A stretch of DNA of 64,000 bases from Dudresnaya verticillata (taxonomy: Eukaryota). The translations under genes were made by a program, and so were the position numbers. Below are positions 6,768-52,395 of the stretch, piece by piece (the stretch's first letter is position 1; each line of letters opens with the position of its first letter). The notes under the pieces are model-generated. The model was not told the origin of the DNA, searched no databases, and saw only the letters and a list, made by a program, of their open reading frames with translations. The DNA is taken from NCBI GenBank assembly GCA_977862235.1, contig OZ374565.1, positions 2,542,001 to 2,606,000 on the forward strand, given 5' to 3'.

Positions 6768-6856
6768 ACATTCGGCCATACTACGCAGACATGCTCCGTA
6801 TCCCATCCCGAACTGCGAAGATAAGTCTCGTCAGGCTGGTTTAGTACTGAGGTGAG
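6768..6856 (+). rRNA. 5S rRNA: 5S rRNA gene 2, 5' segment (nt 1-89), interrupted by three stacked elements
   Basis: Same sequence as 912-1000. Confidence 0.93.
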
Positions 6857-6957
6857 TTCAACTTTATAACAGGTGACCATATTCTAATATTTGTCGACGT
6901 ACAATCTACTGTAGTATCACAACAAAGTTAAACCCCAACTCAAAACAACCTGCACAT

Positions 6958-9900
6958 CTACACCTCCTGTTGGATCCCTTCCATCAGGCACTTGACGTTG
7001 TTCTGCACCAGTCGCGCCGCGTGCCTGTGGAACAGAGCCGCTCGCGAAACACCGCGAGTTACCATGGCCCGAGAAGCCACGGTATCCGCCAACTCTTGCA
7101 TATACTTGTGCGCCTCCGGGTGCCAGCCACCTAGTGTGGTCATCGGCACCGGCACAAGCCTTGCCCCCGGTCCGGCAGCCTGGATGAAGCCACGGTAAGT
7201 CCGCACCTTGTCAGCGTGGGCGTTCTTCAGCGTCCCTTGCGGGTTTGTTATGCAGCTGAGAATGCGTTGTTCTGACGACAGTGGATGACTGATTGTGACG
7301 TCCAGGTAGTCCGTTCCTCCTTCTGTTCCAAGCGCCTTGATGTCCGGCCGATCCAAGTGAGCCCCCACAGGGCGGGGCTCCACAATCGGGGTGCGTGTCG
7401 CACGTTTCAGATCCGAAGCCAGCAGACGAACCTGAGAGTCGTGGCGCCACGACCGAGGAGATCCGCTGTTCCGCATGCCGTTCGGACAAATCAGCAGATG
7501 GTCGCCGTGAACATCCATCATCTTCTTGCACCCGGCCCGAGGACACTCCGTGTCGGGTTCCAGCAGTGGAATCCGACAGTAGAATCGAAGCCATACGCGG
7601 TAGTCCCGATCCGCAATGTACGTCTTCATGCCTGGTGCCGGCTGGCACTTGAGCCAGTCCTTGGCGCCCGGCACGCCAAGGGAAGCTCGGAAAGCTTGCG
7701 TCCGCCTGTCCCCGAGCGGCAGCTCGGCTTGCACTTTCTTCAGAACCAACCGCGTCAAGTCCCGCTGGCGCGGGCACTCGTCGCTGTCGATCTTCTCCAG
7801 GTCCAGGGCATCCTCACTATGGCACTTGGCGCTCCAGTCTTCGTGCGCTTCTACTGCAAAAGGATCGTCAGAAAGAGCAGTGTTCACAGAAGCGGGTAAG
7901 ATAGAACGCAGTAAGTTGCGGGTCAGTGAAAGGGACGCCAAAAACGCGCTCGAGTTCATGTCGCCAGCTCCCGAAATACCGATTCCGAAGCTGGGCTCTT
8001 TCGTGCGCAGGGGAAGCTGAAGTTCGCGGAAGGTGTCCCTCGGTAGGACTCCTCCCACGAGCTTGCGCATGCAAGCCTCAATCTTCTGGTCGAAGAGCTC
8101 GGCGCCCTTTGCCGTGGCGGATGATGGAACTACTCGCAGCAGGTAGTTCAGCCGGCAGACTCCGGCACAGTTGCGGAGTAGAGTGATGGCCACGTGTAGG
8201 TCTTCTAGTCCCGAAATTGCGTCCAGCAGGGGCTGGATGGACTCGACATGGCCATTCACGCTCTCCTCCATGTAGTTCTGCGTTCCAATCGGAGCCTGAA
8301 GTACTGTAGTGCCTTCTCCGTAGCTCTGCCCAAGATCCGACGGGTAGGCAGCGCAGTCTTCTGGGTCGGGTGCAGTAGGCCACCAAACAGTACACTTGTC
8401 CATGCGCAGGTGGAAGCCATAGCCCTTAGCTTCCTCGGAGTCAAAGAAGGACAGAACCTTCCTGAGTACGGCGTGTTTCGCCACGATGACGCCGTCGTCC
8501 AGGTAGAACAGTGACAGCAGCAAGTTGTTCGCCCCCTCCGCTTGCTGATTGCGGCCCGAGCGCCGCAGGTCGGCGGTGAGTTCCTTCAACTGTTTGATCA
8601 GTGCCTGCAGCACCAAAGCAAACAGTAACGGCCCGAGCGGGTCACCTTGCTGTACACCAGTGACACTCCGCAGTAGAGTGTCACCCATCCACAGGTGCGG
8701 GCCCTCAGAGTCATAACAGTATCTGACCCACGGTAGTAGTTCAGGCATATGTCGGCGGACCTCCTTCATGAATGCTTTGCGGCTGACAAGGTTGAAGGCA
8801 TTCTTCAAGTCCACTTGTAGCAACCCGTAGGACTTGTCATGGCCGTGAGACTTCTGCAGCTTCCGGACCGCGTGTACAATGGCTTCTGTGCCGCCCGAGG
8901 TTGCGACCCCGAGCTGAAGCGGTTCGAGGTATGCCTTGGCCTTGGGAGCGACTCTGGTCATGAGCATAGAGCTCACGAGTCGTCGGATTGTCTCTCCTAC
9001 AGCAATGGGGCGGACACCGCCGGTGCGCTTCTTCAGAGCCGTGAGAGGAGCGCTGGCAATCCAAGGCGACAGCTCCGCAGGTCCTGCGCCGCTGGCCAGC
9101 ACGTTGACCATTTTGGTGAGCCCGCCAAGCAGGCCCGTGTGCTCGTGAGTGGTCGGGACTGAGAGCAGTTCCTGCAGATGCGTCGGTGATAGTCCTGTTC
9201 CCCCCGAGGCCGAAGCCCGGGGGAACTTGGCCACTGCTTTTCGTACTTCGTCGGCTGTGAAAGGCACGAAGTCAGGCATGGTCGGCAGCGGTTCGGACTG
9301 GTCAAGCTCGTGGTCCGCGTCGGTTTGCGGTACGGACTGCGGGTGCTTGTCCTTCATGGACTGTATCACAGAGTCTGTGGCTGGGGCGATTCCATCAGAG
9401 TCTAGAGCTGCTGCTGCCTTACTGTAGGCGCCCTCCTTTGCAAGGCGAAGGGCTCGTGAGGCATTGATACGGCGTTGCTCTTCTGCGGAAGGCGCAGTCT
9501 GCTCACGGAATGTCGAGCCCTTCAAGGCCTCCTGCCATAGGGCGTCGTAATCCTTGAGTCCCCAGCGTCGGATTCGATCGCGGAAGGTGCCGATCGAGGA
9601 CGCAGAGGTTGACGCGCTGGCCCTTGCACTCGCGGCGGGAGGATTGGACAAGACGGCTGCTGGAAAAAGCAGGAATGCAGTGAGCTCTTTGGTGGCTTCC
9701 TGAGAGTTGGTTGTGTTCGTAAAAGCCCATACCGTCTTGGACAGTGCGTCGCGCACCTCGGCGCGGACGCGAGACGGTATATGTGTGACCATAGGGATAT
9801 GCGAGCGACAGATGTCTTCGACCGCCGGCAGAAGCTGCCCTCCTGGACCCCGCGCAACGGGTGGGGTTTGCGCAGTTGGTACCTCTCGAGTAGCAGGTAC

Positions 9901-10446
9901 CGGTGCAGGAGGCGGCTCCTGGCTGTCCGGGATTCGTCGCGGGGCTGGCAGGATATCGTCCGCTGGCTCGCCGTCCTCGGGTTGCGTCTCCGTGACCGCG
10001 TCCAGAGCAGGAGACTGTGATGGCGCGGCTACAGTTTCTTCACGGCTCGGTGTCGTCAATTGGTTGGACGGGACGTGGGAGAACGCCGGAGTGCGAGTAG
10101 CGGGACATGCGCTGCAATTCTTGTACCGCATACTGTACATGCCTTCACTGTTCATGCGGGAGCTACAGTGGGTGGGCATGTACTTGTTGTGAGTCACACA
10201 GTACCATACTCCATAGTCCAGGAGCTGCTGCTTGAGAGGCTCGATGTCGGTCCTCGTCGGTGGTCCTCGCCTGCCAGGAACATGCATCTTCCGCAGGTGC
10301 ATGAGTAGCGCTTCTACAGTAGGCAGTGAGGACGACTGGCAGCCCAGAGGACAGCTGGTACTGTTTGTCGGGCGGTGTTTTGCCGAAGGCATAAAGCATG
10401 GAGAGAGCCATACCTTCGGCATGTCGGGGTGCTGCTGACCAATCAT
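6958..10446 (-). CDS. RT-RLE retrotransposon protein, 1162 aa (copy 2)
   Basis: Same motifs as copy 1. Confidence 0.95.
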   Translation of the reverse strand: MIGQQHPDMPKVWLSPCFMPSAKHRPTNSTSCPLGCQSSSLPTVEALLMHLRKMHVPGRRGPPTRTDIEPLKQQLLDYGVWYCVTHNKYMPTHCSSRMNSEGMYSMRYKNCSACPATRTPAFSHVPSNQLTTPSREETVAAPSQSPALDAVTETQPEDGEPADDILPAPRRIPDSQEPPPAPVPATREVPTAQTPPVARGPGGQLLPAVEDICRSHIPMVTHIPSRVRAEVRDALSKTVWAFTNTTNSQEATKELTAFLLFPAAVLSNPPAASARASASTSASSIGTFRDRIRRWGLKDYDALWQEALKGSTFREQTAPSAEEQRRINASRALRLAKEGAYSKAAAALDSDGIAPATDSVIQSMKDKHPQSVPQTDADHELDQSEPLPTMPDFVPFTADEVRKAVAKFPRASASGGTGLSPTHLQELLSVPTTHEHTGLLGGLTKMVNVLASGAGPAELSPWIASAPLTALKKRTGGVRPIAVGETIRRLVSSMLMTRVAPKAKAYLEPLQLGVATSGGTEAIVHAVRKLQKSHGHDKSYGLLQVDLKNAFNLVSRKAFMKEVRRHMPELLPWVRYCYDSEGPHLWMGDTLLRSVTGVQQGDPLGPLLFALVLQALIKQLKELTADLRRSGRNQQAEGANNLLLSLFYLDDGVIVAKHAVLRKVLSFFDSEEAKGYGFHLRMDKCTVWWPTAPDPEDCAAYPSDLGQSYGEGTTVLQAPIGTQNYMEESVNGHVESIQPLLDAISGLEDLHVAITLLRNCAGVCRLNYLLRVVPSSATAKGAELFDQKIEACMRKLVGGVLPRDTFRELQLPLRTKEPSFGIGISGAGDMNSSAFLASLSLTRNLLRSILPASVNTALSDDPFAVEAHEDWSAKCHSEDALDLEKIDSDECPRQRDLTRLVLKKVQAELPLGDRRTQAFRASLGVPGAKDWLKCQPAPGMKTYIADRDYRVWLRFYCRIPLLEPDTECPRAGCKKMMDVHGDHLLICPNGMRNSGSPRSWRHDSQVRLLASDLKRATRTPIVEPRPVGAHLDRPDIKALGTEGGTDYLDVTISHPLSSEQRILSCITNPQGTLKNAHADKVRTYRGFIQAAGPGARLVPVPMTTLGGWHPEAHKYMQELADTVASRAMVTRGVSRAALFHRHAARLVQNNVKCLMEGIQQEV

Positions 10447-11186
10447 GGTTACAGCGCTGGGTAAGGTACCTGTAAAGGTCCTCTACAGTAGGTTCCCACG
10501 GGGCACAGGCCTCCTAACCGGGACGCAAGCCTGTCGTCCGTCGTCAGTCTGTTCGGGACACCTCCAGAGGGTGCTACAGGTGGCCTTGCTGCGAGATGAG
10601 GGCCTCTTCGCAGCGTAGGGCGCGAGATCGCGCACTTTGCGCACGAGCTCGCGCAAAAGGGCGCGCGTGTTAGCGTTCGTGCGCGCAGAGTTATCGGACG
10701 TTCCCTTCCCTGCCGCAGCTGAGAAGACTCTCTTCACTGCGGTCCTGTAACGCGCGGTACTTCTCGTTTGCACAAGCTCTCAATGGGGTCGCAGAACCAC
10801 CGTTTACCTGTGAGTGCCCACAGGATTTTTGGCCTCCCCCGAAGGTTCGCTGGCAGGACGTTCGCTCGATCTTAGAAGGGGTGGTTTCAAAACAGGATCC
10901 ACCAGGCTTAAGCCACGTTACCCCAACTTCGACGTTGCTTGGCACGTTTCTGCGATGAGCTTGTGGGTCACGAGCCGCCTACCACTCAAGGTCGAGGGTC
11001 TTTGGCGATTCCCACACTTGTAGGTCTCTCGGCACTTCCCGAAGGAAGATTTTACAGGACAAGCCTGGCCTTTACCAATCTGTCAGTTGAAGGGTGTGAA
11101 ACCCCTCTGTCGACAGTCCACGGCAGCCTAGACAGAGTCTAGGCTGTGCCGGGTACAAGCAAAACGCGTACAGGGCCAGGGAAAGA

Positions 11187-11232
11187 AAGATAAGTCAGTG
11201 GGGCCCGGGCAAATTTCAAGGTGAGGGATCAC
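11187..11232 (+). promoter_or_regulatory. 5S internal-control-region mimic in the element 5' UTR (copy 2, consensus form)
   Basis: AAGATAAGTC-N22-AGGTGAGGGATCAC; 10/10 and 14/14 identity to the reconstructed host 5S gene at identical spacing. Confidence 0.65.
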
Positions 11233-11543
11233 CTTAAAAGTAAGCGCAAAATAGGAAACGCGTGACCGTCGGCGACGACGGCGGCGGCGACGGCGGCGAC
11301 GACGACGGCGTCGCGGCGCAGATCGGCGGCGCGGAAAGAGACAAAAGTAGACCGCGCTCGCCCGCCCGCGAAGGTGAAGGGCTGAAAAACCCCGCACCGA
11401 CGCGCCGTCGCGCGCTCGAACAGGCGGCACCGCCGCCGAAAAGATCGGTGCAGAACTTGCTGAGAAATCTCCGAAACAAAAAATTCGGCAGATCGCGAGG
11501 GGTTCTCCAGTCTCAGTCTGAGGTGAGGGAGTACTCAGGTGAG

Positions 11544-20837: not shown

Positions 20838-20863
20838 TGAGGGAGTACTCAGTCTGAGGTGAG

Positions 20864-20894
20864 GGATCACTCTGGAATCGCCAGTGCCGAATGT
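20864..20894 (+). rRNA. 5S rRNA: 5S rRNA gene 2, 3' segment (nt 90-120)
   Basis: GGATCACTCTGGAATCGCCAGTGCCGAATGT followed by oligo(T). Confidence 0.92.
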
Positions 20895-21983
20895 TTTTAT
20901 TTTTTTGCACCTCATTCCTTCCTCCCCGCCGCCCTCTGCGTACATTGCTGCCTTGCATACCTCTCCCACAGAATCCCCGACCCACTGCCTCTGTACAGCG
21001 TATTCTTTTCACTCGCACTTTTCCCCTTTTCTTGTAAGTGGGAGGGAGTCTGAGAGTGTTTGCAGGTGTCTAGGGGTTGTTTAGGGTTAGGTCTAGGGTT
21101 AGTTTGGTTACTGTGGTACGCGAGGGGCATGATATTGGGAGGGTAAAGGGTCTAGTGTTGGTGCATGGAATGAATCATGGTGGTGGAAGGAATGGATCAG
21201 TGTGGTGGATGAATTGGATTTAGGGACATAGAATTGGATTAGATTTAGTACCCAGAAGATTGGATCAAGGATCACCACAATCGGATCAAGTCTGGTGGCT
21301 GGGGTGAGGGTGGCTTGGACGTTTGTGCTCATAACTTTGGAACGGCTGGGGCTAGGGAGCTGCTCAGTAGCTGAATCGAAGCGTCTCGTTGCTGCGCATT
21401 GCGTAGCGCTCTTACCCTCCTAAATCGACTTTTTGGCGCGTTTCTATGGTGCAAAACGTCCCCACGGGCCGTCGGCAGCTTTTGAGCAGATCAAATAGGG
21501 GTTTGGGGCATGTATGGTTATGGGTGGGTTTAGGGGTGTTAGGGATGTGTCATTTTAACGCGTTTAGGAGTGTAGGGAGTGGGAATGAAAGTAGTAAGGA
21601 TGAGGAAATGGAAAGGGAAGGATGAGAAAGTATAGTACAATGCAGTAATACAAATCACGGAATGCATCAGGTTGGGATCCAATAAGGGTGGATGGATTGG
21701 ATCAACGGAAGTCAAGGCGTTATAGGATTGGATCTAGGGGCTCTGTAAATTAGATTGGGTGCTGGTTTCATTGAACCAAGGGGTCAGAACGTCCATGAGC
21801 TGGTTGACTGTATTTATATTGAATCCTGCGTTTAGAGTAAATGGTATACGGTTATGGGTCATTACTTTAATGCTCCACGTGTACACTACAGTCGGATGGA
21901 CATTGGACGCAGGAGTCTTTAGTCGATGACGGGGAGTGCAGTTGATGGCGCATTTAAATAGGGGTACGGCGGGAACAGCAAGC
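20895..21983. repeat. 5S rDNA intergenic spacer
   Basis: Matches other spacer copies; 20864-22072 defines the 1209-bp uninserted repeat unit. Confidence 0.9.
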
Positions 21984-22072: not shown

Positions 22073-25000
22073 TTCAACTTTATAACAGGTGACCATATTC
22101 TAATATTTGTCGACGTACAATCTACTGTAGTATCACAACAAAGTTAAACCCCAACTCAAAACAACCTGCACATCTACACCTCCTGTTGGATCCCTTCCAT
22201 CAGGCACTTGACGTTGTTCTGCACCAGTCGCGCCGCGTGCCTGTGGAACAGAGCCGCTCGCGAAACACCGCGAGTTACCATGGCCCGAGAAGCCACGGTA
22301 TCCGCCAACTCTTGCATATACTTGTGCGCCTCCGGGTGCCAGCCACCTAGTGTGGTCATCGGCACCGGCACAAGCCTTGCCCCCGGTCCGGCAGCCTGGA
22401 TGAAGCCACGATAAGTCCGCACCTTGTCAGCGTGGGCGTTCTTCAGCGTCCCTTGCGGGTTTGTTATGCAGCTGAGAATGCGTTGTTCTGACGACAGTGG
22501 ATGACTGATTGTGACGTCCAGGTAGTCCGTTCCTCCTTCTGTTCCAAGCGCCTTGATGTCCGGCCGATCCAAGTGAGCCCCCACAGGGCGGGGCTCCACA
22601 ATCGGGGTGCGTGTCGCACGTTTCAGATCCGAAGCCAGCAGACGAACCTGAGAGTCGTGGCGCCACGACCGAGGAGATCCGCTGTTCCGCATGCCGTTCG
22701 GACAAATCAGCAGATGGTCGCCGTGAACATCCATCATCTTCTTGCACCCGGCCCGAGGACACTCCGTGTCGGGTTCCAGCAGTGGAATCCGACAGTAGAA
22801 TCGAAGCCATACGCGGTAGTCCCGATCCGCAATGTACGTCTTCATGCCTGGTGCCGGCTGGCACTTGAGCCAGTCCTTGGCGCCCGGCACGCCAAGGGAA
22901 GCTCGGAAAGCTTGCGTCCGCCTGTCCCCGAGCGGCAGCTCGGCTTGCACTTTCTTCAGAACCAACCGCGTCAAGTCCCGCTGGCGCGGGCACTCGTCGC
23001 TGTCGATCTTCTCCAGGTCCAGGGCATCCTCACTATGGCACTTGGCGCTCCAGTCTTCGTGCGCTTCTACTGCAAAAGGATCGTCAGAAAGAGCAGTGTT
23101 CACAGAAGCGGGTAAGATAGAACGCAGTAAGTTGCGGGTCAGTGAAAGGGACGCCAAAAACGCGCTCGAGTTCATGTCGCCAGCTCCCGAAATACCGATT
23201 CCGAAGCTGGGCTCTTTCGTGCGCAGGGGAAGCTGAAGTTCGCGGAAGGTGTCCCTCGGTAGGACTCCTCCCACGAGCTTGCGCATGCAAGCCTCAATCT
23301 TCTGGTCGAAGAGCTCGGCGCCCTTTGCCGTGGCGGATGATGGAACTACTCGCAGCAGGTAGTTCAGCCGGCAGACTCCGGCACAGTTGCGGAGTAGAGT
23401 GATGGCCACGTGTAGGTCTTCTAGTCCCGAAATTGCGTCCAGCAGGGGCTGGATGGACTCGACATGGCCATTCACGCTCTCCTCCATGTAGTTCTGCGTT
23501 CCAATCGGAGCCTGAAGTACTGTAGTGCCTTCTCCGTAGCTCTGCCCAAGATCCGACGGGTAGGCAGCGCAGTCTTCTGGGTCGGGTGCAGTAGGCCACC
23601 AAACAGTACACTTGTCCATGCGCAGGTGGAAGCCATAGCCCTTAGCTTCCTCGGAGTCAAAGAAGGACAGAACCTTCCTGAGTACGGCGTGTTTCGCCAC
23701 GATGACGCCGTCGTCCAGGTAGAACAGTGACAGCAGCAAGTTGTTCGCCCCCTCCGCTTGCTGATTGCGGCCCGAGCGCCGCAGGTCGGCGGTGAGTTCC
23801 TTCAACTGTTTGATCAGTGCCTGCAGCACCAAAGCAAACAGTAACGGCCCGAGCGGGTCACCTTGCTGTACACCAGTGACACTCCGCAGTAGAGTGTCAC
23901 CCATCCACAGGTGCGGGCCCTCAGAGTCATAACAGTATCTGACCCACGGTAGTAGTTCAGGCATATGTCGGCGGACCTCCTTCATGAATGCTTTGCGGCT
24001 GACAAGGTTGAAGGCATTCTTCAAGTCCACTTGTAGCAACCCGTAGGACTTGTCATGGCCGTGAGACTTCTGCAGCTTCCGGACCGCGTGTACAATGGCT
24101 TCTGTGCCGCCCGAGGTTGCGACCCCGAGCTGAAGCGGTTCGAGGTATGCCTTGGCCTTGGGAGCGACTCTGGTCATGAGCATAGAGCTCACGAGTCGTC
24201 GGATTGTCTCTCCTACAGCAATGGGGCGGACACCGCCGGTGCGCTTCTTCAGAGCCGTGAGAGGAGCGCTGGCAATCCAAGGCGACAGCTCCGCAGGTCC
24301 TGCGCCGCTGGCCAGCACGTTGACCATTTTGGTGAGCCCGCCAAGCAGGCCCGTGTGCTCGTGAGTGGTCGGGACTGAGAGCAGTTCCTGCAGATGCGTC
24401 GGTGATAGTCCTGTTCCCCCCGAGGCCGAAGCCCGGGGGAACTTGGCCACTGCTTTTCGTACTTCGTCGGCTGTGAAAGGCACGAAGTCAGGCATGGTCG
24501 GCAGCGGTTCGGACTGGTCAAGCTCGTGGTCCGCGTCGGTTTGCGGTACGGACTGCGGGTGCTTGTCCTTCATGGACTGTATCACAGAGTCTGTGGCTGG
24601 GGCGATTCCATCAGAGTCTAGAGCTGCTGCTGCCTTACTGTAGGCGCCCTCCTTTGCAAGGCGAAGGGCTCGTGAGGCATTGATACGGCGTTGCTCTTCT
24701 GCGGAAGGCGCAGTCTGCTCACGGAATGTCGAGCCCTTCAAGGCCTCCTGCCATAGGGCGTCGTAATCCTTGAGTCCCCAGCGTCGGATTCGATCGCGGA
24801 AGGTGCCGATCGAGGACGCAGAGGTTGACGCGCTGGCCCTTGCACTCGCGGCGGGAGGATTGGACAAGACGGCTGCTGGAAAAAGCAGGAATGCAGTGAG
24901 CTCTTTGGTGGCTTCCTGAGAGTTGGTTGCGTTCGTAAAAGCCCATACCGTCTTGGACAGTGCGTCGCGCACCTCGGCGCGGACGCGAGACGGTATATGT

Positions 25001-26724
25001 GTGACCATAGGGATATGCGAGCGACAGATGTCTTCGACCGCCGGCAGAAGCTGCCCTCCTGGACCCCGCGCAACGGGTGGGGTTTGCGCAGTTGGTACCT
25101 CTCGAGTAGCAGGTACCGGTGCAGGAGGCGGCTCCTGGCTGTCCGGGATTCGTCGCGGGGCTGGCAGGATATCGTCCGCTGGCTCGCCGTCCTCGGGTTG
25201 CGTCTCCGTGACCGCGTCCAGAGCAGGAGACTGTGATGGCGCGGCTACAGTTTCTTCACGGCTCGGTGTCGTCAATTGGTTGGACGGGACGTGGGAGAAC
25301 GCCGGAGTGCGAGTAGCGGGACATGCGCTGCAATTCTTGTACCGCATACTGTACATGCCTTCACTGTTCATGCGGGAGCTACAGTGGGTGGGCATGTACT
25401 TGTTGTGAGTCACACAGTACCATACTCCATAGTCCAGGAGCTGCTGCTTGAGAGGCTCGATGTCGGTCCTCGTCGGTGGTCCTCGCCTGCCAGGAACATG
25501 CATCTTCCGCAGGTGCATGAGTAGCGCTTCTACAGTAGGCAGTGAGGACGACTGGCAGCCCAGAGGACAGCTGGTACTGTTTGTCGGGCGGTGTTTTGCC
25601 GAAGGCATAAAGCATGGAGAGAGCCATACCTTCGGCATGTCGGGGTGCTGCTGACCAATCATGGTTACAGCGCTGGGTAAGGTACCTGTAAAGGTCCTCT
25701 ACAGTAGGTTCCCACGGGGCACAGACCTCCTAACCGGGACGCAAGCCTGTCGTCCGTCGTCAGTCTGTTCGGGACACCTCCAGAGGGTGCTACAGGTGGC
25801 CTTGCTGCGAGATGAGGGCCTCTTCGCAGCGTAGGGCGCGAGATCGCGCACTTTGCGCACGAGCTCGCGCAAAAGGGCGCGCGTGTTAGCGTTCGTGCGC
25901 GCAGAGTTATCGGACGTTCCCTTCCCTGCCGCAGCTGAGAAGACTCTCTTCACTGCGGTCCTGTAACGCGCGGTACTTCTCGTTTGCACAAGCTCTCAAT
26001 GGGGTCGCAGAACCACCGTTTACCTGTGAGTGCCCACAGGATTTTTGGCCTCCCCCGAAGGTTCGCTGGCAGGACGTTCGCTCGATCTTAGAAGGGGTGG
26101 TTTCAAAACAGGATCCACCAGGCTTAAGCCACGTTACCCCAACTTCGACGTTGCTTGGCACGTTTCTGCGATGAGCTTGTGGGTCACGAGCCGCCTACCA
26201 CTCAAGGTCGAGGGTCTTTGGCGATTCCCACACTTGTAGGTCTCTCGGCACTTCCCGAAGGAAGATTTTACAGGACAAGCCTGGCCTTTACCAATCTGTC
26301 AGTTGAAGGGTGTGAAACCCCTCTGTCGACAGTCCACGGCAGCCTAGACAGAGTCTAGGCTGTGCCGGGTACAAGCAAAACGCGTACAGGGCCAGGGAAA
26401 GAAAGATAAGTCAGTGGGGCCCGGGCAAATTTCAAGGTGAGGGATCACCTTAAAAGTAAGCGCAAAATAGGAAACGCGTGACCGTCGGCGACGACGGCGG
26501 CGGCGACGGCGGCGACGACGACGGCGTCGCGGCGCAGATCGGCGGCGCGGAAAGAGACAAAAGTAGACCGCGCTCGCCCGCCCGCGAAGGTGAAGGGCTG
26601 AAAAACCCCGCACCGACGCGCCGTCGCGCGCTCGAACAGGCGGCACCGCCGCCGAAAAGATCGGTGCAGAACTTGCTGAGAAATCTCCGAAACAAAAAAT
26701 TCGGCAGATCGCGAGGGGTTCTCC
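22073..26724 (-). mobile_element. Retrotransposon copy 5 (full length)
   Basis: Precise 3' junction, intact ORF. Confidence 0.95.
22174..25662 (-). CDS. RT-RLE retrotransposon protein, 1162 aa (copy 5)
   Basis: Same motifs as copy 1. Confidence 0.95.
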   Translation of the reverse strand: MIGQQHPDMPKVWLSPCFMPSAKHRPTNSTSCPLGCQSSSLPTVEALLMHLRKMHVPGRRGPPTRTDIEPLKQQLLDYGVWYCVTHNKYMPTHCSSRMNSEGMYSMRYKNCSACPATRTPAFSHVPSNQLTTPSREETVAAPSQSPALDAVTETQPEDGEPADDILPAPRRIPDSQEPPPAPVPATREVPTAQTPPVARGPGGQLLPAVEDICRSHIPMVTHIPSRVRAEVRDALSKTVWAFTNATNSQEATKELTAFLLFPAAVLSNPPAASARASASTSASSIGTFRDRIRRWGLKDYDALWQEALKGSTFREQTAPSAEEQRRINASRALRLAKEGAYSKAAAALDSDGIAPATDSVIQSMKDKHPQSVPQTDADHELDQSEPLPTMPDFVPFTADEVRKAVAKFPRASASGGTGLSPTHLQELLSVPTTHEHTGLLGGLTKMVNVLASGAGPAELSPWIASAPLTALKKRTGGVRPIAVGETIRRLVSSMLMTRVAPKAKAYLEPLQLGVATSGGTEAIVHAVRKLQKSHGHDKSYGLLQVDLKNAFNLVSRKAFMKEVRRHMPELLPWVRYCYDSEGPHLWMGDTLLRSVTGVQQGDPLGPLLFALVLQALIKQLKELTADLRRSGRNQQAEGANNLLLSLFYLDDGVIVAKHAVLRKVLSFFDSEEAKGYGFHLRMDKCTVWWPTAPDPEDCAAYPSDLGQSYGEGTTVLQAPIGTQNYMEESVNGHVESIQPLLDAISGLEDLHVAITLLRNCAGVCRLNYLLRVVPSSATAKGAELFDQKIEACMRKLVGGVLPRDTFRELQLPLRTKEPSFGIGISGAGDMNSSAFLASLSLTRNLLRSILPASVNTALSDDPFAVEAHEDWSAKCHSEDALDLEKIDSDECPRQRDLTRLVLKKVQAELPLGDRRTQAFRASLGVPGAKDWLKCQPAPGMKTYIADRDYRVWLRFYCRIPLLEPDTECPRAGCKKMMDVHGDHLLICPNGMRNSGSPRSWRHDSQVRLLASDLKRATRTPIVEPRPVGAHLDRPDIKALGTEGGTDYLDVTISHPLSSEQRILSCITNPQGTLKNAHADKVRTYRGFIQAAGPGARLVPVPMTTLGGWHPEAHKYMQELADTVASRAMVTRGVSRAALFHRHAARLVQNNVKCLMEGIQQEV

Positions 26725-26756
26725 GGGTACTGAGGTGAGGACTGAGGTCAGGTGAG

Positions 26757-29700
26757 TTCAACTTTATAACAGGTGACCATATTCTAATATTTGTCGACGT
26801 ACAATCTACTGTAGTATCACAACAAAGTTAAACCCCAACTCAAAACAACCTGCACATCTACACCTCCTGTTGGATCCCTTCCATCAGGCACTTGACGTTG
26901 TTCTGCACCAGTCGCGCCGCGTGCCTGTGGAACAGAGCCGCTCGCGAAACACCGCGAGTTACCATGGCCCGAGAAGCCACGGTATCCGCCAACTCTTGCA
27001 TATACTTGTGCGCCTCCGGGTGCCAGCCACCTAGTGTGGTCATCGGCACCGGCACAAGCCTTGCCCCCGGTCCGGCAGCCTGGATGAAGCCACGGTAAGT
27101 CCGCACCTTGTCAGCGTGGGCGTTCTTCAGCGTCCCTTGCGGGTTTGTTATGCAGCTGAGAATGCGTTGTTCTGACGACAGTGGATGACTGATTGTGACG
27201 TCCAGGTAGTCCGTTCCTCCTTCTGTTCCAAGCGCCTTGATGTCCGGCCGATCCAAGTGAGCCCCCACAGGGCGGGGCTCCACAATCGGGGTGCGTGTCG
27301 CACGTTTCAGATCCGAAGCCAGCAGACGAACCTGAGAGTCGTGGCGCCACGACCGAGGAGATCCGCTGTTCCGCATGCCGTTCGGACAAATCAGCAGATG
27401 GTCGCCGTGAACATCCATCATCTTCTTGCACCCGGCCCGAGGACACTCCGTGTCGGGTTCCAGCAGTGGAATCCGACAGTAGAATCGAAGCCATACGCGG
27501 TAGTCCCGATCCGCAATGTACGTCTTCATGCCTGGTGCCGGCTGGCACTTGAGCCAGTCCTTGGCGCCCGGCACGCCAAGGGAAGCTCGGAAAGCTTGCG
27601 TCCGCCTGTCCCCGAGCGGCAGCTCGGCTTGCACTTTCTTCAGAACCAACCGCGTCAAGTCCCGCTGGCGCGGGCACTCGTCGCTGTCGATCTTCTTCAG
27701 GTCCAGGGCATCCTCACTATGGCACTTGGCGCTCCAGTCTTCGTGCGCTTCTACTGCAAAAGGATCGTCAGAAAGAGCAGTGTTCACAGAAGCGGGTAAG
27801 ATAGAACGCAGTAAGTTGCGGGTCAGTGAAAGGGACGCCAAAAACGCGCTCGAGTTCATGTCGCCAGCTCCCGAAATACCGATTCCGAAGCTGGGCTCTT
27901 TCGTGCGCAGGGGAAGCTGAAGTTCGCGGAAGGTGTCCCTCGGTAGGACTCCTCCCACGAGCTTGCGCATGCAAGCCTCAATCTTCTGGTCGAAGAGCTC
28001 GGCGCCCTTTGCCGTGGCGGATGATGGAACTACTCGCAGCAGGTAGTTCAGCCGGCAGACTCCGGCACAGTTGCGGAGTAGAGTGATGGCCACGTGTAGG
28101 TCTTCTAGTCCCGAAATTGCGTCCAGCAGGGGCTGGATGGACTCGACATGGCCATTCACGCTCTCCTCCATGTAGTTCTGCGTTCCAATCGGAGCCTGAA
28201 GTACTGTAGTGCCTTCTCCGTAGCTCTGCCCAAGATCCGACGGGTAGGCAGCGCAGTCTTCTGGGTCGGGTGCAGTAGGCCACCAAACAGTACACTTGTC
28301 CATGCGCAGGTGGAAGCCATAGCCCTTAGCTTCCTCGGAGTCAAAGAAGGACAGAACCTTCCTGAGTACGGCGTGTTTCGCCACGATGACGCCGTCGTCC
28401 AGGTAGAACAGTGACAGCAGCAAGTTGTTCGCCCCCTCCGCTTGCTGATTGCGGCCCGAGCGCCGCAGGTCGGCGGTGAGTTCCTTCAACTGTTTGATCA
28501 GTGCCTGCAGCACCAAAGCAAACAGTAACGGCCCGAGCGGGTCACCTTGCTGTACACCAGTGACACTCCGCAGTAGAGTGTCACCCATCCACAGGTGCGG
28601 GCCCTCAGAGTCATAACAGTATCTGACCCACGGTAGTAGTTCAGGCATATGTCGGCGGACCTCCTTCATGAATGCTTTGCGGCTGACAAGGTTGAAGGCA
28701 TTCTTCAAGTCCACTTGTAGCAACCCGTAGGACTTGTCATGGCCGTGAGACTTCTGCAGCTTCCGGACCGCGTGTACAATGGCTTCTGTGCCGCCCGAGG
28801 TTGCGACCCCGAGCTGAAGCGGTTCGAGGTATGCCTTGGCCTTGGGAGCGACTCTGGTCATGAGCATAGAGCTCACGAGTCGTCGGATTGTCTCTCCTAC
28901 AGCAATGGGGCGGACACCGCCGGTGCGCTTCTTCAGAGCCGTGAGAGGAGCGCTGGCAATCCAAGGCGACAGCTCCGCAGGTCCTGCGCCGCTGGCCAGC
29001 ACGTTGACCATTTTGGTGAGCCCGCCAAGCAGGCCCGTGTGCTCGTGAGTGGTCGGGACTGAGAGCAGTTCCTGCAGATGCGTCGGTGATAGTCCTGTTC
29101 CCCCCGAGGCCGAAGCCCGGGGGAACTTGGCCACTGCTTTTCGTACTTCGTCGGCTGTGAAAGGCACGAAGTCAGGCATGGTCGGCAGCGGTTCGGACTG
29201 GTCAAGCTCGTGGTCCGCGTCGGTTTGCGGTACGGACTGCGGGTGCTTGTCCTTCATGGACTGTATCACAGAGTCTGTGGCTGGGGCGATTCCATCAGAG
29301 TCTAGAGCTGCTGCTGCCTTACTGTAGGCGCCCTCCTTTGCAAGGCGAAGGGCTCGTGAGGCATTGATACGGCGTTGCTCTTCTGCGGAAGGCGCAGTCT
29401 GCTCACGGAATGTCGAGCCCTTCAAGGCCTCCTGCCATAGGGCGTCGTAATCCTTGAGTCCCCAGCGTCGGATTCGATCGCGGAAGGTGCCGATCGAGGA
29501 CGCAGAGGTTGACGCGCTGGCCCTTGCACTCGCGGCGGGAGGATTGGACAAGACGGCTGCTGGAAAAAGCAGGAATGCAGTGAGCTCTTTGGTGGCTTCC
29601 TGAGAGTTGGTTGCGTTCGTAAAAGCCCATACCGTCTTGGACAGTGCGTCGCGCACCTCGGCGCGGACGCGAGACGGTATATGTGTGACCATAGGGATAT

Positions 29701-31408
29701 GCGAGCGACAGATGTCTTCGACCGCCGGCAGAAGCTGCCCTCCTGGACCCCGCGCAACGGGTGGGGTTTGCGCAGTTGGTACCTCTCGAGTAGCAGGTAC
29801 CGGTGCAGGAGGCGGCTCCTGGCTGTCCGGGATTCGTCGCGGGGCTGGCAGGATATCGTCCGCTGGCTCGCCGTCCTCGGGTTGCGTCTCCGTGACCGCG
29901 TCCAGAGCAGGAGACTGTGATGGCGCGGCTACAGTTTCTTCACGGCTCGGTGTCGTCAATTGGTTGGACGGGACGTGGGAGAACGCCGGAGTGCGAGTAG
30001 CGGGACATGCGCTGCAATTCTTGTACCGCATACTGTACATGCCTTCACTGTTCATGCGGGAGCTACAGTGGGTGGGCATGTACTTGTTGTGAGTCACACA
30101 GTACCATACTCCATAGTCCAGGAGCTGCTGCTTGAGAGGCTCGATGTCGGTCCTCGTCGGTGGTCCTCGCCTGCCAGGAACATGCATCTTCCGCAGGTGC
30201 ATGAGTAGCGCTTCTACAGTAGGCAGTGAGGACGACTGGCAGCCCAGAGGACAGCTGGTACTGTTTGTCGGGCGGTGTTTTGCCGAAGGCATAAAGCATG
30301 GAGAGAGCCATACCTTCGGCATGTCGGGGTGCTGCTGACCAATCATGGTTACAGCGCTGGGTAAGGTACCTGTAAAGGTCCTCTACAGTAGGTTCCCACG
30401 GGGCACAGACCTCCTAACCGGGACGCAAGCCTGTCGTCCGTCGTCAGTCTGTTCGGGACACCTCCAGAGGGTGCTACAGGTGGCCTTGCTGCGAGATGAG
30501 GGCCTCTTCGCAGCGTAGGGCGCGAGATCGCGCACTTTGCGCACGAGCTCGCGCAAAAGGGCGCGCGTGTTAGCGTTCGTGCGCGCAGAGTTATCGGACG
30601 TTCCCTTCCCTGCCGCAGCTGAGAAGACTCTCTTCACTGCGGTCCTGTAACGCGCGGTACTTCTCGTTTGCACAAGCTCTCAATGGGGTCGCAGAACCAC
30701 CGTTTACCTGTGAGTGCCCACAGGATTTTTGGCCTCCCCCGAAGGTTCGCTGGCAGGACGTTCGCTCGATCTTAGAAGGGGTGGTTTCAAAACAGGATCC
30801 ACCAGGCTTAAGCCACGTTACCCCAACTTCGACGTTGCTTGGCACGTTTCTGCGATGAGCTTGTGGGTCACGAGCCGCCTACCACTCAAGGTCGAGGGTC
30901 TTTGGCGATTCCCACACTTGTAGGTCTCTCGGCACTTCCCGAAGGAAGATTTTACAGGACAAGCCTGGCCTTTACCAATCTGTCAGTTGAAGGGTGTGAA
31001 ACCCCTCTGTCGACAGTCCACGGCAGCCTAGACAGAGTCTAGGCTGTGCCGGGTACAAGCAAAACGCGTACAGGGCCAGGGAAAGAAAGATAAGTCAGTG
31101 GGGCCCGGGCAAATTTCAAGGTGAGGGATCACCTTAAAAGTAAGCGCAAAATAGGAAACGCGTGACCGTCGGCGACGACGGCGGCGGCGACGGCGGCGAC
31201 GACGACGGCGTCGCGGCGCAGATCGGCGGCGCGGAAAGAGACAAAAGTAGACCGCGCTCGCCCGCCCGCGAAGGTGAAGGGCTGAAAAACCCCGCACCGA
31301 CGCGCCGTCGCGCGCTCGAACAGGCGGCACCGCCGCCGAAAAGATCGGTGCAGAACTTGCTGAGAAATCTCCGAAACAAAAAATTCGGCAGATCGCGAGG
31401 GGTTCTCC
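26757..31408 (-). mobile_element. Retrotransposon copy 6 (full length)
   Basis: Precise 3' junction, intact ORF. Confidence 0.95.
26858..30346 (-). CDS. RT-RLE retrotransposon protein, 1162 aa (copy 6)
   Basis: Same motifs; private LDLKKID variant. Confidence 0.95.
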   Translation of the reverse strand: MIGQQHPDMPKVWLSPCFMPSAKHRPTNSTSCPLGCQSSSLPTVEALLMHLRKMHVPGRRGPPTRTDIEPLKQQLLDYGVWYCVTHNKYMPTHCSSRMNSEGMYSMRYKNCSACPATRTPAFSHVPSNQLTTPSREETVAAPSQSPALDAVTETQPEDGEPADDILPAPRRIPDSQEPPPAPVPATREVPTAQTPPVARGPGGQLLPAVEDICRSHIPMVTHIPSRVRAEVRDALSKTVWAFTNATNSQEATKELTAFLLFPAAVLSNPPAASARASASTSASSIGTFRDRIRRWGLKDYDALWQEALKGSTFREQTAPSAEEQRRINASRALRLAKEGAYSKAAAALDSDGIAPATDSVIQSMKDKHPQSVPQTDADHELDQSEPLPTMPDFVPFTADEVRKAVAKFPRASASGGTGLSPTHLQELLSVPTTHEHTGLLGGLTKMVNVLASGAGPAELSPWIASAPLTALKKRTGGVRPIAVGETIRRLVSSMLMTRVAPKAKAYLEPLQLGVATSGGTEAIVHAVRKLQKSHGHDKSYGLLQVDLKNAFNLVSRKAFMKEVRRHMPELLPWVRYCYDSEGPHLWMGDTLLRSVTGVQQGDPLGPLLFALVLQALIKQLKELTADLRRSGRNQQAEGANNLLLSLFYLDDGVIVAKHAVLRKVLSFFDSEEAKGYGFHLRMDKCTVWWPTAPDPEDCAAYPSDLGQSYGEGTTVLQAPIGTQNYMEESVNGHVESIQPLLDAISGLEDLHVAITLLRNCAGVCRLNYLLRVVPSSATAKGAELFDQKIEACMRKLVGGVLPRDTFRELQLPLRTKEPSFGIGISGAGDMNSSAFLASLSLTRNLLRSILPASVNTALSDDPFAVEAHEDWSAKCHSEDALDLKKIDSDECPRQRDLTRLVLKKVQAELPLGDRRTQAFRASLGVPGAKDWLKCQPAPGMKTYIADRDYRVWLRFYCRIPLLEPDTECPRAGCKKMMDVHGDHLLICPNGMRNSGSPRSWRHDSQVRLLASDLKRATRTPIVEPRPVGAHLDRPDIKALGTEGGTDYLDVTISHPLSSEQRILSCITNPQGTLKNAHADKVRTYRGFIQAAGPGARLVPVPMTTLGGWHPEAHKYMQELADTVASRAMVTRGVSRAALFHRHAARLVQNNVKCLMEGIQQEV

Positions 31409-31440
31409 GGGTACTGAGGTGAGGACTGAGGTCAGGTGAG

Positions 31441-34400
31441 TTCAACTTTATAACAGGTGACCATATTCTAATATTTGTCGACGTACAATCTACTGTAGTA
31501 TCACAACAAAGTTAAACCCCAACTCAAAACAACCTGCACATCTACACCTCCTGTTGGATCCCTTCCATCAGGCACTTGACGTTGTTCTGCACCAGTCGCG
31601 CCGCGTGCCTGTGGAACAGAGCCGCTCGCGAAACACCGCGAGTTACCATGGCCCGAGAAGCCACGGTATCCGCCAACTCTTGCATATACTTGTGCGCCTC
31701 CGGGTGCCAGCCACCTAGTGTGGTCATCGGCACCGGCACAAGCCTTGCCCCCGGTCCGGCAGCCTGGATGAAGCCACGGTAAGTCCGCACCTTGTCAGCG
31801 TGGGCGTTCTTCAGCGTCCCTTGCGGGTTTGTTATGCAGCTGAGAATGCGTTGTTCTGACGACAGTGGATGACTGATTGTGACGTCCAGGTAGTCCGTTC
31901 CTCCTTCTGTTCCAAGCGCCTTGATGTCCGGCCGATCCAAGTGAGCCCCCACAGGGCGGGGCTCCACAATCGGGGTGCGTGTCGCACGTTTCAGATCCGA
32001 AGCCAGCAGACGAACCTGAGAGTCGTGGCGCCACGACCGAGGAGATCCGCTGTTCCGCATGCCGTTCGGACAAATCAGCAGATGGTCGCCGTGAACATCC
32101 ATCATCTTCTTGCACCCGGCCCGAGGACACTCCGTGTCGGGTTCCAGCAGTGGAATCCGACAGTAGAATCGAAGCCATACGCGGTAGTCCCGATCCGCAA
32201 TGTACGTCTTCATGCCTGGTGCCGGCTGGCACTTGAGCCAGTCCTTGGCGCCCGGCACGCCAAGGGAAGCTCGGAAAGCTTGCGTCCGCCTGTCCCCGAG
32301 CGGCAGCTCGGCTTGCACTTTCTTCAGAACCAACCGCGTCAAGTCCCGCTGGCGCGGGCACTCGTCGCTGTCGATCTTCTCCAGGTCCAGGGCATCCTCA
32401 CTATGGCACTTGGCGCTCCAGTCTTCGTGCGCTTCTACTGCAAAAGGATCGTCAGAAAGAGCAGTGTTCACAGAAGCGGGTAAGATAGAACGCAGTAAGT
32501 TGCGGGTCAGTGAAAGGGACGCCAAAAACGCGCTCGAGTTCATGTCGCCAGCTCCCGAAATACCGATTCCGAAGCTGGGCTCTTTCGTGCGCAGGGGAAG
32601 CTGAAGTTCGCGGAAGGTGTCCCTCGGTAGGACTCCTCCCACGAGCTTGCGCATGCAAGCCTCAATCTTCTGGTCGAAGAGCTCGGCGCCCTTTGCCGTG
32701 GCGGATGATGGAACTACTCGCAGCAGGTAGTTCAGCCGGCAGACTCCGGCACAGTTGCGGAGTAGAGTGATGGCCACGTGTAGGTCTTCTAGTCCCGAAA
32801 TTGCGTCCAGCAGGGGCTGGATGGACTCGACATGGCCATTCACGCTCTCCTCCATGTAGTTCTGCGTTCCAATCGGAGCCTGAAGTACTGTAGTGCCTTC
32901 TCCGTAGCTCTGCCCAAGATCCGACGGGTAGGCAGCGCAGTCTTCTGGGTCGGGTGCAGTAGGCCACCAAACAGTACACTTGTCCATGCGCAGGTGGAAG
33001 CCATAGCCCTTAGCTTCCTCGGAGTCAAAGAAGGACAGAACCTTCCTGAGTACGGCGTGTTTCGCCACGATGACGCCGTCGTCCAGGTAGAACAGTGACA
33101 GCAGCAAGTTGTTCGCCCCCTCCGCTTGCTGATTGCGGCCCGAGCGCCGCAGGTCGGCGGTGAGTTCCTTCAACTGTTTGATCAGTGCCTGCAGCACCAA
33201 AGCAAACAGTAACGGCCCGAGCGGGTCACCTTGCTGTACACCAGTGACACTCCGCAGTAGAGTGTCACCCATCCACAGGTGCGGGCCCTCAGAGTCATAA
33301 CAGTATCTGACCCACGGTAGTAGTTCAGGCATATGTCGGCGGACCTCCTTCATGAATGCTTTGCGGCTGACAAGGTTGAAGGCATTCTTCAAGTCCACTT
33401 GTAGCAACCCGTAGGACTTGTCATGGCCGTGAGACTTCTGCAGCTTCCGGACCGCGTGTACAATGGCTTCTGTGCCGCCCGAGGTTGCGACCCCGAGCTG
33501 AAGCGGTTCGAGGTATGCCTTGGCCTTGGGAGCGACTCTGGTCATGAGCATAGAGCTCACGAGTCGTCGGATTGTCTCTCCTACAGCAATGGGGCGGACA
33601 CCGCCGGTGCGCTTCTTCAGAGCCGTGAGAGGAGCGCTGGCAATCCAAGGCGACAGCTCCGCAGGTCCTGCGCCGCTGGCCAGCACGTTGACCATTTTGG
33701 TGAGCCCGCCAAGCAGGCCCGTGTGCTCGTGAGTGGTCGGGACTGAGAGCAGTTCCTGCAGATGCGTCGGTGATAGTCCTGTTCCCCCCGAGGCCGAAGC
33801 CCGGGGGAACTTGGCCACTGCTTTTCGTACTTCGTCGGCTGTGAAAGGCACGAAGTCAGGCATGGTCGGCAGCGGTTCGGACTGGTCAAGCTCGTGGTCC
33901 GCGTCGGTTTGCGGTACGGACTGCGGGTGCTTGTCCTTCATGGACTGTATCACAGAGTCTGTGGCTGGGGCGATTCCATCAGAGTCTAGAGCTGCTGCTG
34001 CCTTACTGTAGGCGCCCTCCTTTGCAAGGCGAAGGGCTCGTGAGGCATTGATACGGCGTTGCTCTTCTGCGGAAGGCGCAGTCTGCTCACGGAATGTCGA
34101 GCCCTTCAAGGCCTCCTGCCATAGGGCGTCGTAATCCTTGAGTCCCCAGCGTCGGATTCGATCGCGGAAGGTGCCGATCGAGGACGCAGAGGTTGACGCG
34201 CTGGCCCTTGCACTCGCCGCGGGAGGATTGGACAAGACGGCTGCTGGAAAAAGCAGGAATGCAGTGAGCTCTTTGGTGGCTTCCTGAGAGTTGGTTGCGT
34301 TCGTAAAAGCCCATACCGTCTTGGACAGTGCGTCGCGCACCTCGGCGCGGACGCGAGACGGTATATGTGTGACCATAGGGATATGCGAGCGACAGATGTC

Positions 34401-36080: not shown

Positions 36081-36096
36081 TGAGTACTGAGGTGAG

Positions 36097-50069: not shown

Positions 50070-52395
50070 TTCAACTTTATAACAGGTGACCATATTCTAA
50101 TATTTGTCGACGTACAATCTACTGTAGTATCACAACAAAGTTAAACCCCAACTCAAAACAACCTGCACATCTACACCTCCTGTTGGATCCCTTCCATCAG
50201 GCACTTGACGTTGTTCTGCACCAGTCGCGCCGCGTGCCTGTGGAACAGAGCCGCTCGCGAAACACCGCGAGTTACCATGGCCCGAGAAGCCACGGTATCC
50301 GCCAACTCTTGCATATACTTGTGCGCCTCCGGGTGCCAGCCACCTAGTGTGGTCATCGGCACCGGCACAAGCCTTGCCCCCGGTCCGGCAGCCTGGATGA
50401 AGCCACGGTAAGTCCGCACCTTGTCAGCGTGGGCGTTCTTCAGCGTCCCTTGCGGGTTTGTTATGCAGCTGAGAATGCGTTGTTCTGACGACAGTGGATG
50501 ACTGATTGTGACGTCCAGGTAGTCCGTTCCTCCTTCTGTTCCAAGCGCCTTGATGTCCGGCCGATCCAAGTGAGCCCCCACAGGGCGGGGCTCCACAATC
50601 GGGGTGCGTGTCGCACGTTTCAGATCCGAAGCCAGCAGACGAACCTGAGAGTCGTGGCGCCACGACCGAGGAGATCCGCTGTTCCGCATGCCGTTCGGAC
50701 AAATCAGCAGATGGTCGCCGTGAACATCCATCATCTTCTTGCACCCGGCCCGAGGACACTCCGTGTCGGGTTCCAGCAGTGGAATCCGACAGTAGAATCG
50801 AAGCCATACGCGGTAGTCCCGATCCGCAATGTACGTCTTCATGCCTGGTGCCGGCTGGCACTTGAGCCAGTCCTTGGCGCCCGGCACGCCAAGGGAAGCT
50901 CGGAAAGCTTGCGTCCGCCTGTCCCCGAGCGGCAGCTCGGCTTGCACTTTCTTCAGAACCAACCGCGTCAAGTCCCGCTGGCGCGGGCACTCGTCGCTGT
51001 CGATCTTCTCCAGGTCCAGGGCATCCTCACTATGGCACTTGGCGCTCCAGTCTTCGTGCGCTTCTACTGCAAAAGGATCGTCAGAAAGAGCAGTGTTCAC
51101 AGAAGCGGGTAAGATAGAACGCAGTAAGTTGCGGGTCAGTGAAAGGGACGCCAAAAACGCGCTCGAGTTCATGTCGCCAGCTCCCGAAATACCGATTCCG
51201 AAGCTGGGCTCTTTCGTGCGCAGGGGAAGCTGAAGTTCGCGGAAGGTGTCCCTCGGTAGGACTCCTCCCACGAGCTTGCGCATGCAAGCCTCAATCTTCT
51301 GGTCGAAGAGCTCGGCGCCCTTTGCCGTGGCGGATGATGGAACTACTCGCAGCAGGTAGTTCAGCCGGCAGACTCCGGCACAGTTGCGGAGTAGAGTGAT
51401 GGCCACGTGTAGGTCTTCTAGTCCCGAAATTGCGTCCAGCAGGGGCTGGATGGACTCGACATGGCCATTCACGCTCTCCTCCATGTAGTTCTGCGTTCCA
51501 ATCGGAGCCTGAAGTACTGTAGTGCCTTCTCCGTAGCTCTGCCCAAGATCCGACGGGTAGGCAGCGCAGTCTTCTGGGTCGGGTGCAGTAGGCCACCAAA
51601 CAGTACACTTGTCCATTCGCAGGTGGAAGCCATAGCCCTTAGCTTCCTCGGAGTCAAAGAAGGACAGAACCTTCCTGAGTACGGCGTGTTTCGCCACGAT
51701 GACGCCGTCGTCCAGGTAGAACAGTGACAGCAGCAAGTTGTTCGCCCCCTCCGCTTGCTGATTGCGGCCCGGGCGCCGCAGGTCGGCGGTGAGTTCCTTC
51801 AACTGTTTGATCAGTGCCTGCAGCACCAAAGCAAACAGTAACGGCCCGAGCGGGTCACCTTGCTGTACACCAGTGACACTCCGCAGTAGAGTGTCACCCA
51901 TCCACAGGTGCGGGCCCTCAGAGTCATAACAGTATCTGACCCACGGTAGTAGTTCAGGCATATGTCGGCGGACCTCCTTCATGAATGCTTTGCGGCTGAC
52001 AAGGTTGAAGGCATTCTTCAAGTCCACTTGTAGCAACCCGTAGGACTTGTCATGGCCGTGAGACTTCTGCAGCTTCCGGACCGCGTGTACAATGGCTTCT
52101 GTGCCGCCCGAGGTTGCGACCCCGAGCTGAAGCGGTTCGAGGTATGCCTTGGCCTTGGGATCGACTCTGGTCATGAGCATAGAGCTCACGAGTCGTCGGA
52201 TTGTCTCTCCTACAGCAATGGGGCGGACACCGCCGGTGCGCTTCTTCAGAGCCGTGAGAGGAGCGCTGGCAATCCAAGGCGACAGCTCCGCAGGTCCTGC
52301 GCCGCTGGCCAGCACGTTGACCATTTTGGTGAGCCCGCCAAGCAGGCCCGTGTGCTCGTGAGTGGTCGGGACTGAGAGCAGTTCCTGCAGATCGC
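50070..52395 (-). mobile_element. Retrotransposon copy 11, lacking its 5' half
   Basis: Element sequence stops at …TTCCTGCAGAT and continues CG-CTGAGGTGAG-GGATCAC (5S 3' segment). Confidence 0.93.
50171..52392 (-). pseudogene. 5'-truncated RT-RLE ORF (no zinc finger or native start)
   Basis: Matches the full protein from LQELLSVP onward; the ORF-track N-terminus is antisense 5S/spacer sequence. Confidence 0.9.

Follow-up and report, generated by a model that had tools for sequence, protein, structure and literature searches.

A spacing-exact copy of two 5S promoter boxes in the 5' UTR of a 5S-inserted retrotransposon of Dudresnaya verticillata: a candidate TFIIIA platform

An element that breaks the 5S genes of Dudresnaya verticillata within box C carries in its own 5' UTR a copy of the host box A and box C at exactly the host spacing, and we tentatively propose, with a probability of about 0.4, that this mimic is a non-transcribed TFIIIA/TFIIIC platform that would hold the start region of the element open. 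Whatever its effect, the mimic is probably bound by TFIIIA, to judge from its sequence. The window throughout is the whole stretch of DNA that was analysed (64,000 nucleotides, or 64 kb; contig OZ374565.1, positions 2,542,001 to 2,606,000), numbered from its first letter; feature coordinates are collected in Table 1.

Five 5S genes were detected in the window with Rfam, all on the + strand, and all five are split within box C by an antisense element: each gene is truncated after AGGTGAG, where the element 3' end begins, and 5S sequence picks up again with GGATCAC beyond the element. Fourteen element copies, antisense to 5S, occupy roughly 90% of the window: one stands alone, others form head-to-tail runs of three, seven and two, and the last (copy 14) extends past the window end. 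The element is 4.64 kb long, and the full 1,174-codon open frame is present in 11 of the 14 copies. Copy 11 (50070-52395) lacks the 5' half, with the break at a 6-nt microhomology, copy 12 (53614-56889) has lost about 1.4 kb from within its ORF, and in copy 13 (56909-60549) a deletion removed the UTR together with the 5S right half. There are two element subfamilies about 1% apart, and they are therefore too close for testing box conservation.

Further features of the array were recorded. Two 5'-terminal haplotypes, distinguished by five linked sites at 11460-11483 and represented by five copies each (n = 10), are independent of the ORF subfamilies, and a terminal hairpin is predicted in both. 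Copies 5 and 6 differ at 2 sites, and junctions 5/6 and 6/7 are identical across 45 nt; the stretch 22073-36096 is a segmental duplication inside the array. The first bases of the mRNA strand (11474-11490 in copy 2, and likewise at all full-length 5' ends) resemble the 5S 3' end and terminator at 16 of 18 positions, and in a read-through RNA these element bases would pair with the right-hand flank, closing a 16-bp stem round the junction. This predicted stem is weak (z of -2.8 in copy 4 and -1.7 in copy 1), with other element tiles scoring nearly the same.

The host reference sequence was assembled from the left and right halves of broken 5S genes, as the window contains no unbroken junction with the intact host box string and no whole 5S gene within its 64 kb; right halves are clean in two cases (20864, 52405) and damaged in one (5652). 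The rebuilt gene is 120 nt long, and both its terminal helix and its loop-D hairpin close; its ends appear to be of red-algal type. In the one DNA sequencing run used (X1, share 0.08, the mimic lying outside its coverage), two low-depth 5S-like contigs with 5 and 6 differences in 39 nt read past the nick with GGATCACTC. Since these contigs cross the site in the same way and the rebuilt gene folds, the reconstruction is sound. The host string quoted in the preliminary description agrees with the host gene, although it is nowhere contiguous in the window and has to be rebuilt from the halves. The TATA-like run at -30 of the host gene reads TTTAAATA.

On the + strand at 11187-11232, the mimic reads AAGATAAGTC, 22 nt, AGGTGAGGGATCAC. 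In register with the host gene and with no indel, identity runs 9/50 before the mimic, 10/10 in the first block, 6/22 in the linker, 14/14 in the second block and 6/23 after it; the likeness is one of boxes only (30/46 overall), the 3' part of box A and the last box C bases differing from the host. This bears out the earlier account of two identical blocks on box A and box C with equal 22-nt gaps and unrelated gap and flanks, in the orientation of the host 5S and antisense to the ORF (+ strand mimic, - strand element). The mimic starts at 5330, 11187, 15873, 20528, 26403, 31087, 35771, 40427, 45086, 49751 and 56580, that is, in 11 of 14 copies and, as had been described, in every copy that retains the UTR; nine of these match at 24/24, and in the other two a single base is altered, in the 14-mer of copy 1 and in the 10-mer of copy 3. 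The span had been drawn to 11235, and the match extends to 11232 only; 11233-11235 (CTT) are not host-like and complete the hairpin. A chance origin was rejected, as none of 1,500 Markov-shuffled elements reached the observed 24 nt (maximum 17; best single-diagonal cover by exact words of at least 8), confirming that the two-box match is genuine. The mimic keeps box A, box C and, between them, the intermediate-element C.GG at 5S spacing, which by sequence is the layout of a type 1 Pol III promoter. Two features absent from the preliminary description are that the box C 14-mer has the insertion site at its very middle (7|7) and that it falls in a predicted mRNA-strand hairpin.

Table 1 Features of the element, the mimic and the flanking host 5S halves (window coordinates).
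Feature	Position	Strand	Remarks
Host 5S left half: box A, intermediate element, first 7 nt of box C 14-mer	6768..6856	+	TATA-like run about 30 nt upstream
Whole element, copy 2 of 14	6857..11496	-	4,640 bp
ORF from first ATG, copy 2	6958..10446	-	1,162 aa; 1,174 stop to stop
5' UTR, copy 2	10447..11496	-	1,050 nt
Perfect 10-bp inverted repeat	11124..11146	.	First base of right arm is 11137, analogous to 5S +1
Box A mimic	11187..11196	+	10/10 identical to rebuilt host 5S; presumably about +49 to +58 in usual 5S numbering
Linker	11197..11218	+	22 nt as in host; 6/22 identical; C.GG of intermediate element in register at 11205-11208
Inverted repeat round 14-mer	11214..11239	-	Predicted 11-bp hairpin on mRNA strand (one G.U); 7 bp on other strand
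Box C mimic	11219..11232	+	14/14 identical; also the target core, 7 nt each side of nick
Filler between copies 2 and 3	11497..11543	+	Patchwork of target-site fragments
Right half of the same host 5S gene, after copy 4	20854..20899	+	Duplicated target, remaining box C, 3' end, T-run terminator

The first 397 nt of the 5' UTR in copy 2 are predicted to be strongly folded (z -4.1); a search of the UTR for RNA families returned no known ribozyme or other family, with a single match at chance level, and over the mimic itself we found only short stop-to-stop frames and could demonstrate no conserved ATG-led ORF. The word ACGCGT, which we take to be a MluI site resembling a cell-cycle box, occurs at only two sites in the 4.6-kb element (11164 and 11258), as an 8-nt direct repeat either side of the mimic; the host spacer has one ACGCGT and one E2F-like word.

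We characterized the element protein by domain, structure and sequence comparison. The reverse transcriptase (RT) domain was recognized as Pfam RVT_1 (E 1e-16, residues 484-700), the N-terminus has C2H2-like and Cys/His motifs (the latter common to proteins P0003-P0005), and the C-terminus has a CCHC-like knuckle and a putative PD-D endonuclease, with C-x2-4-C, H-x3-C, R-H, R-x-D and D motifs kept in 14 proteins. Profile alignment with the R2 endonuclease region was weak; the predicted structure (pLDDT 80) best matches R2 proteins (about 1,000 columns, E 8e-21). Within this window alone, all 14 element 3' ends adjoin AGGTGAG. With its single ORF encoding an RT, a knuckle and a putative PD-(D/E)xK endonuclease, the element has the predicted make-up of an RLE-type site-specific non-LTR retrotransposon. 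Thirteen database proteins at 35-56% identity group with it (14-protein group, support 100) in a rapidly built tree of 34 of the 121 proteins, rooted at its midpoint. Named sequence matches were SLACS-like (27-29%), and the only CRE-clade names in the tree are those of two SLACS-named database matches, which fall outside the 14-protein group; we provisionally call the element CRE-like on these names, the sole relevant ones among its matches.

Among relatives, 97 loci were compared—the best 80 of 486 metagenome loci and 17 genome loci—and no related loci were found in viral contigs. The 17 genome loci (L081-L097) come from bacterial genome assemblies and encode eukaryote-type retrotransposon proteins; they are likely host contamination. 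One close relative (P0005, P0124) has an N-terminal Ulp1-like protease domain (PF02902), as in NeSL elements, and a similar stretch apparently lies upstream of the RT frame at 5100-5750 of L003 (by eye). Rfam detected no 5S in the 47 of 97 loci scanned and only two tRNAs, both in L090 and far from the ORF. The best two-box match across all 97 loci was 16/24, equal to background, and no locus had both a UTR and a 5S flank; the closest four loci among the matches listed (L001, L003, L010, L039) are short or degraded and lie outside 5S.

Junction fillers were compared with the target site. In all 12, host words reach a maximum length of 7-14 nt, the longest being found no more than 14 nt from the nick, on its left side, and words from further left are 6 nt long (by inspection); being short and nick-proximal, such words make junction noise a poor source of the mimic. 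At junctions 5640, 11497, 20838, 26713, 45396 and 56890, filler is partly common to different copies, and the true transcript start is therefore likely to be 10-14 nt outside the apparent 5' end. Fold-back palindromes centred on host AGTACT occur within several fillers. Copies 4, 8 and 11 are flanked by identical stretches of 16, 17 and 18 nt, including 6, 3 and 8 non-host bases, and the position of box A at these right junctions matches at only 4, 4 and 1 of 10 bases. These results suggest that the three copies inserted at regenerated right junctions without box A, although each duplication has another reading (inherited filler, slippage, or internal deletion at a 6-nt microhomology). Insertion thus seems to do without box A, and that the mimic nevertheless includes box A points to a host factor. 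No insertion was found in any of the 11 mimics, against nine tandem junctions; CTG precedes 11 of 14 nicks, and the mimic is without CTG.

The preferred reading, a non-transcribed platform, would run as follows. The element would have captured a 5S fragment, with selection afterwards at factor-contact positions only. During insertion, the + strand would be nicked after AGGTGAG and target-primed reverse transcription would follow, as the junctions and the R2-like fold suggest, splitting box C of the target 5S gene. The element mRNA would have its start 260-310 bp right of the mimic and, because its strand has 14 runs of at least 4 T, would be made by Pol II. Host TFIIIA and TFIIIC would then bind the two boxes, with no transcription from the mimic, and the bound complex would keep the element's start region open in the manner of the barrier sites known as extra-TFIIIC (ETC) sites. 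The preliminary description held that the element destroys box C and brings a replacement: the cut is confirmed, and the copy could serve as a replacement for factor binding only, no 5S RNA being possible from it.

Both blocks of the mimic fall on the boxes of the control region. In TFIIIA, the C-box is read by fingers 1-3 and the intermediate element by finger 5; fingers 4 and 6 do no more than cross the minor groove (PMC12409998). Box A is bound weakly, and the linkers are simply crossed (PMC12409998, PMC10245719). Where TFIIIC is present without TFIIIB or Pol III, its sites function as barriers and insulators (PMC12409998). The in-register C.GG agrees with such binding and is weak evidence alone. 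Because even decay of a captured piece is rejected (see below), selection for a reader of both boxes is likely, and TFIIIA is the best candidate. The 264 bp of UTR to the right of the mimic have no clear likeness to the host spacer (best E 0.13), which speaks against captured spacer there, and the capture is therefore old with the boxes still exact, which argues for selection. Benefit to the copy that carries the mimic is the simplest source of this exact tracking, and for that reason we favour an open start region as the effect. Against the platform, the mimic retains no more of box A than its 5' part, a complex inside the transcription unit could equally hinder Pol II, and neither the 7|7 centring nor the mRNA-strand hairpin is predicted by a DNA-binding model.

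The boxes also carry more new mutations than their length would predict, which counts against the platform reading. Substitutions confined to one copy number 14 in an alignment of 10 full-length copies, and 2 of them fall within these 24 of 4,640 bp; copies 1 and 3 differ at seven sites, two of them within the 24 bp of boxes (P about 0.002 and 0.0006, respectively, both post hoc and resting on two bases); in copy 12, compared apart, the boxes are unchanged. Within the window, the boxes are less conserved, not more. This excess could be due to a hotspot, to escape from repression, to host selection or to error.

Escape is what would be expected if the same site served as a TFIIIA brake, sensor or decoy, blocking the element mRNA or soaking up TFIIIA. 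As a brake, TFIIIA would also cover the nick in intact genes, so that the element is expressed when TFIIIA is scarce and its targets are bare. The nick does lie within the footprint of fingers 1-3, the mimic would sit about 260-310 bp inside the transcription unit, and 5S RNA itself also holds TFIIIA in the 7S particle (PMC5340908). We nevertheless consider this, the nearest rival, unlikely: the mutation excess amounts to two bases, and exact tracking of the host boxes needs steady selection, whereas self-restraint would gain only via host survival.

The hairpin round the 14-mer raises a role in RNA. On the mRNA strand it scores z -4.4, versus -2.0 on the other strand, and only 51 of 100,000 flank shuffles reached its 11 bp; together with the nick-centred 14-mer, this makes an RNA-level role possible. 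The mRNA-strand blocks, complementary to the nicked target strand, could act as a guide that helps find or open the site, as do the exon-binding sites of group II introns. From the nick, the 14-mer extends over exactly 7 nt on each side, and the G.U pair of the hairpin works on the mRNA strand only. However, fingers 1-3 have their footprint on almost the same bases, and the centring may thus be coincidental; the stem buries 10 of those 14 bases; elements of this kind have structured 5' UTRs in any case; no target would match better than the element's own DNA, yet none of the 11 mimics was invaded; and insertions apparently occur without box A. A guide is decidedly unlikely on this evidence. 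Very doubtful, too, is a combined form in which an early-branching non-LTR retrotransposon would have its UTR as a base-pairing guide, with the hairpin-caged 14-mer and spaced 10-mer selecting 5S, and in which this DNA would double as a TFIIIA site and tie expression to target availability.

The mimic could instead be an operator for the element's own protein, a non-cleavable target copy in the UTR that allows autoregulation. It is indeed the target core without the preceding CTG and was never invaded, the element adds a palindrome round the 14-mer, and the shared N-terminal Cys/His motifs could be of use here. A single C2H2-like finger reads few bases, and the second block on box A goes unexplained if insertion needs no box A; we therefore think an operator very unlikely.

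A working Pol III promoter, giving an antisense RNA that starts near 11137, is improbable as well. In type 1 promoters, transcription begins about 50 bp ahead of box A (PMC12409998), and 11137 is a purine in the position analogous to +1; three of 11 copies have a T4 run after 345-416 nt, and Cassandra elements are transcribed from such boxes (PMC10853983). The preliminary description allowed for a + strand Pol III RNA, and this is now doubtful: the TATA-like run present in the host is absent at -30 in the element, eight of the 11 copies continue for about 2.6 kb without a T4 terminator, and an antisense RNA would tend to silence the element. Nor would the mimic be the Pol III promoter of the mRNA, since the boxes face away from it and its strand carries the T-runs. 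A TFIIIA/TFIIIC platform is more likely than a promoter because the mimic points away from the mRNA and has no TATA-like element.

Least probable is a functionless relic—an old junction, a captured 5S piece, or two filler fragments in register by chance—despite junction fillers here being patchworks of target fragments and new mutations falling freely in the boxes. Even decay of a captured 46-nt piece to 30 matches left two runs totalling 24 in only 91 of 2,000,000 permutations, which rejects the uniform-decay version of the alternative named in the preliminary description and supports the platform; moreover, box A is absent from every filler, and the capture appears old with exact boxes.

The closest parallels are Cassandra (plant TRIMs) and Ajax (nemerteans; TRIMp3), which likewise carry 5S boxes mirroring the host, with variable linkers and kept spacing (PMC10853983, PMC10886601); in Cassandra, the boxes are kept and the linkers free, with no large indels (PMC10853983). 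SINE3 likewise has 5S promoter sequence inside a retroelement (PMC10946416, PMC10886601), but its 5S heads are terminal, sense and drive the SINE RNA, whereas the mimic is internal and antisense in a coding element. ETC sites are likewise Pol III factor sites without transcription and with barrier function, the mode proposed here, although their B boxes are bound directly by TFIIIC (PMC12409998) and binding to this mobile element would go via TFIIIA. Cassandra and Ajax are non-autonomous LTR elements with a 5S-like core of about 70 bp as their own promoter, whereas the present element is an autonomous non-LTR one with boxes only, which point away from its mRNA, and inserts into the very box copied; the hallmarks of Cassandra and TRIMp3 (LTRs, PBS, PPT, no protein) are not found in it.

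Among elements that use 5S or comparable genes as targets, zebrafish Mutsu belongs to the Tx1 clade and has an AP endonuclease. Mutsu is also a sequence-specific non-LTR retrotransposon in 5S genes, but it has two ORFs, about 5.5 kb and sites in the 5S 5' half, as against one ORF and a site in box C here, and the excerpts of the paper describe no internal box mimic (PMC5340908). CRE/SLACS, R2, NeSL and Utopia likewise have one ORF (zinc motif, RT, knuckle, PD-D) and a strict multicopy-RNA-gene target (PMC4640811); the present element differs from CRE-clade and other RLE elements in its own 14-protein group, its 5S target and its antisense insertion. TRE5, Ty1 and Tj1 target sites upstream of 5S (PMC5911963, PMC3159450). 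The excerpts of PMC3747384 and PMC4455052 hold nothing on this element. In the literature searched, whose scope leaves out Repbase Reports and most subscription journals, where the element may be catalogued, we found no RLE element in 5S and no antisense, boxes-only 5S mimic in an autonomous element.

The intact, young, site-specific RT-endonuclease with a 5S target (full ORF in 11 of 14 copies) is a candidate for targeted insertion work, and if the guide reading were true, the target would be reprogrammable by RNA and this value far greater. The mimic also offers a short, naturally occurring sequence on which to ask what 5S positions are required by TFIIIA, and whether a Pol II unit can be insulated or regulated by this factor. 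Promoter mimicry of 5S is known in non-autonomous elements, which use the boxes for their own transcription; new here is an autonomous element that destroys box C in its target while bearing a boxes-only copy in the opposite orientation. This suggests a parasite that borrows a host factor, believed to be dedicated to a single gene family, for a purpose other than RNA synthesis.
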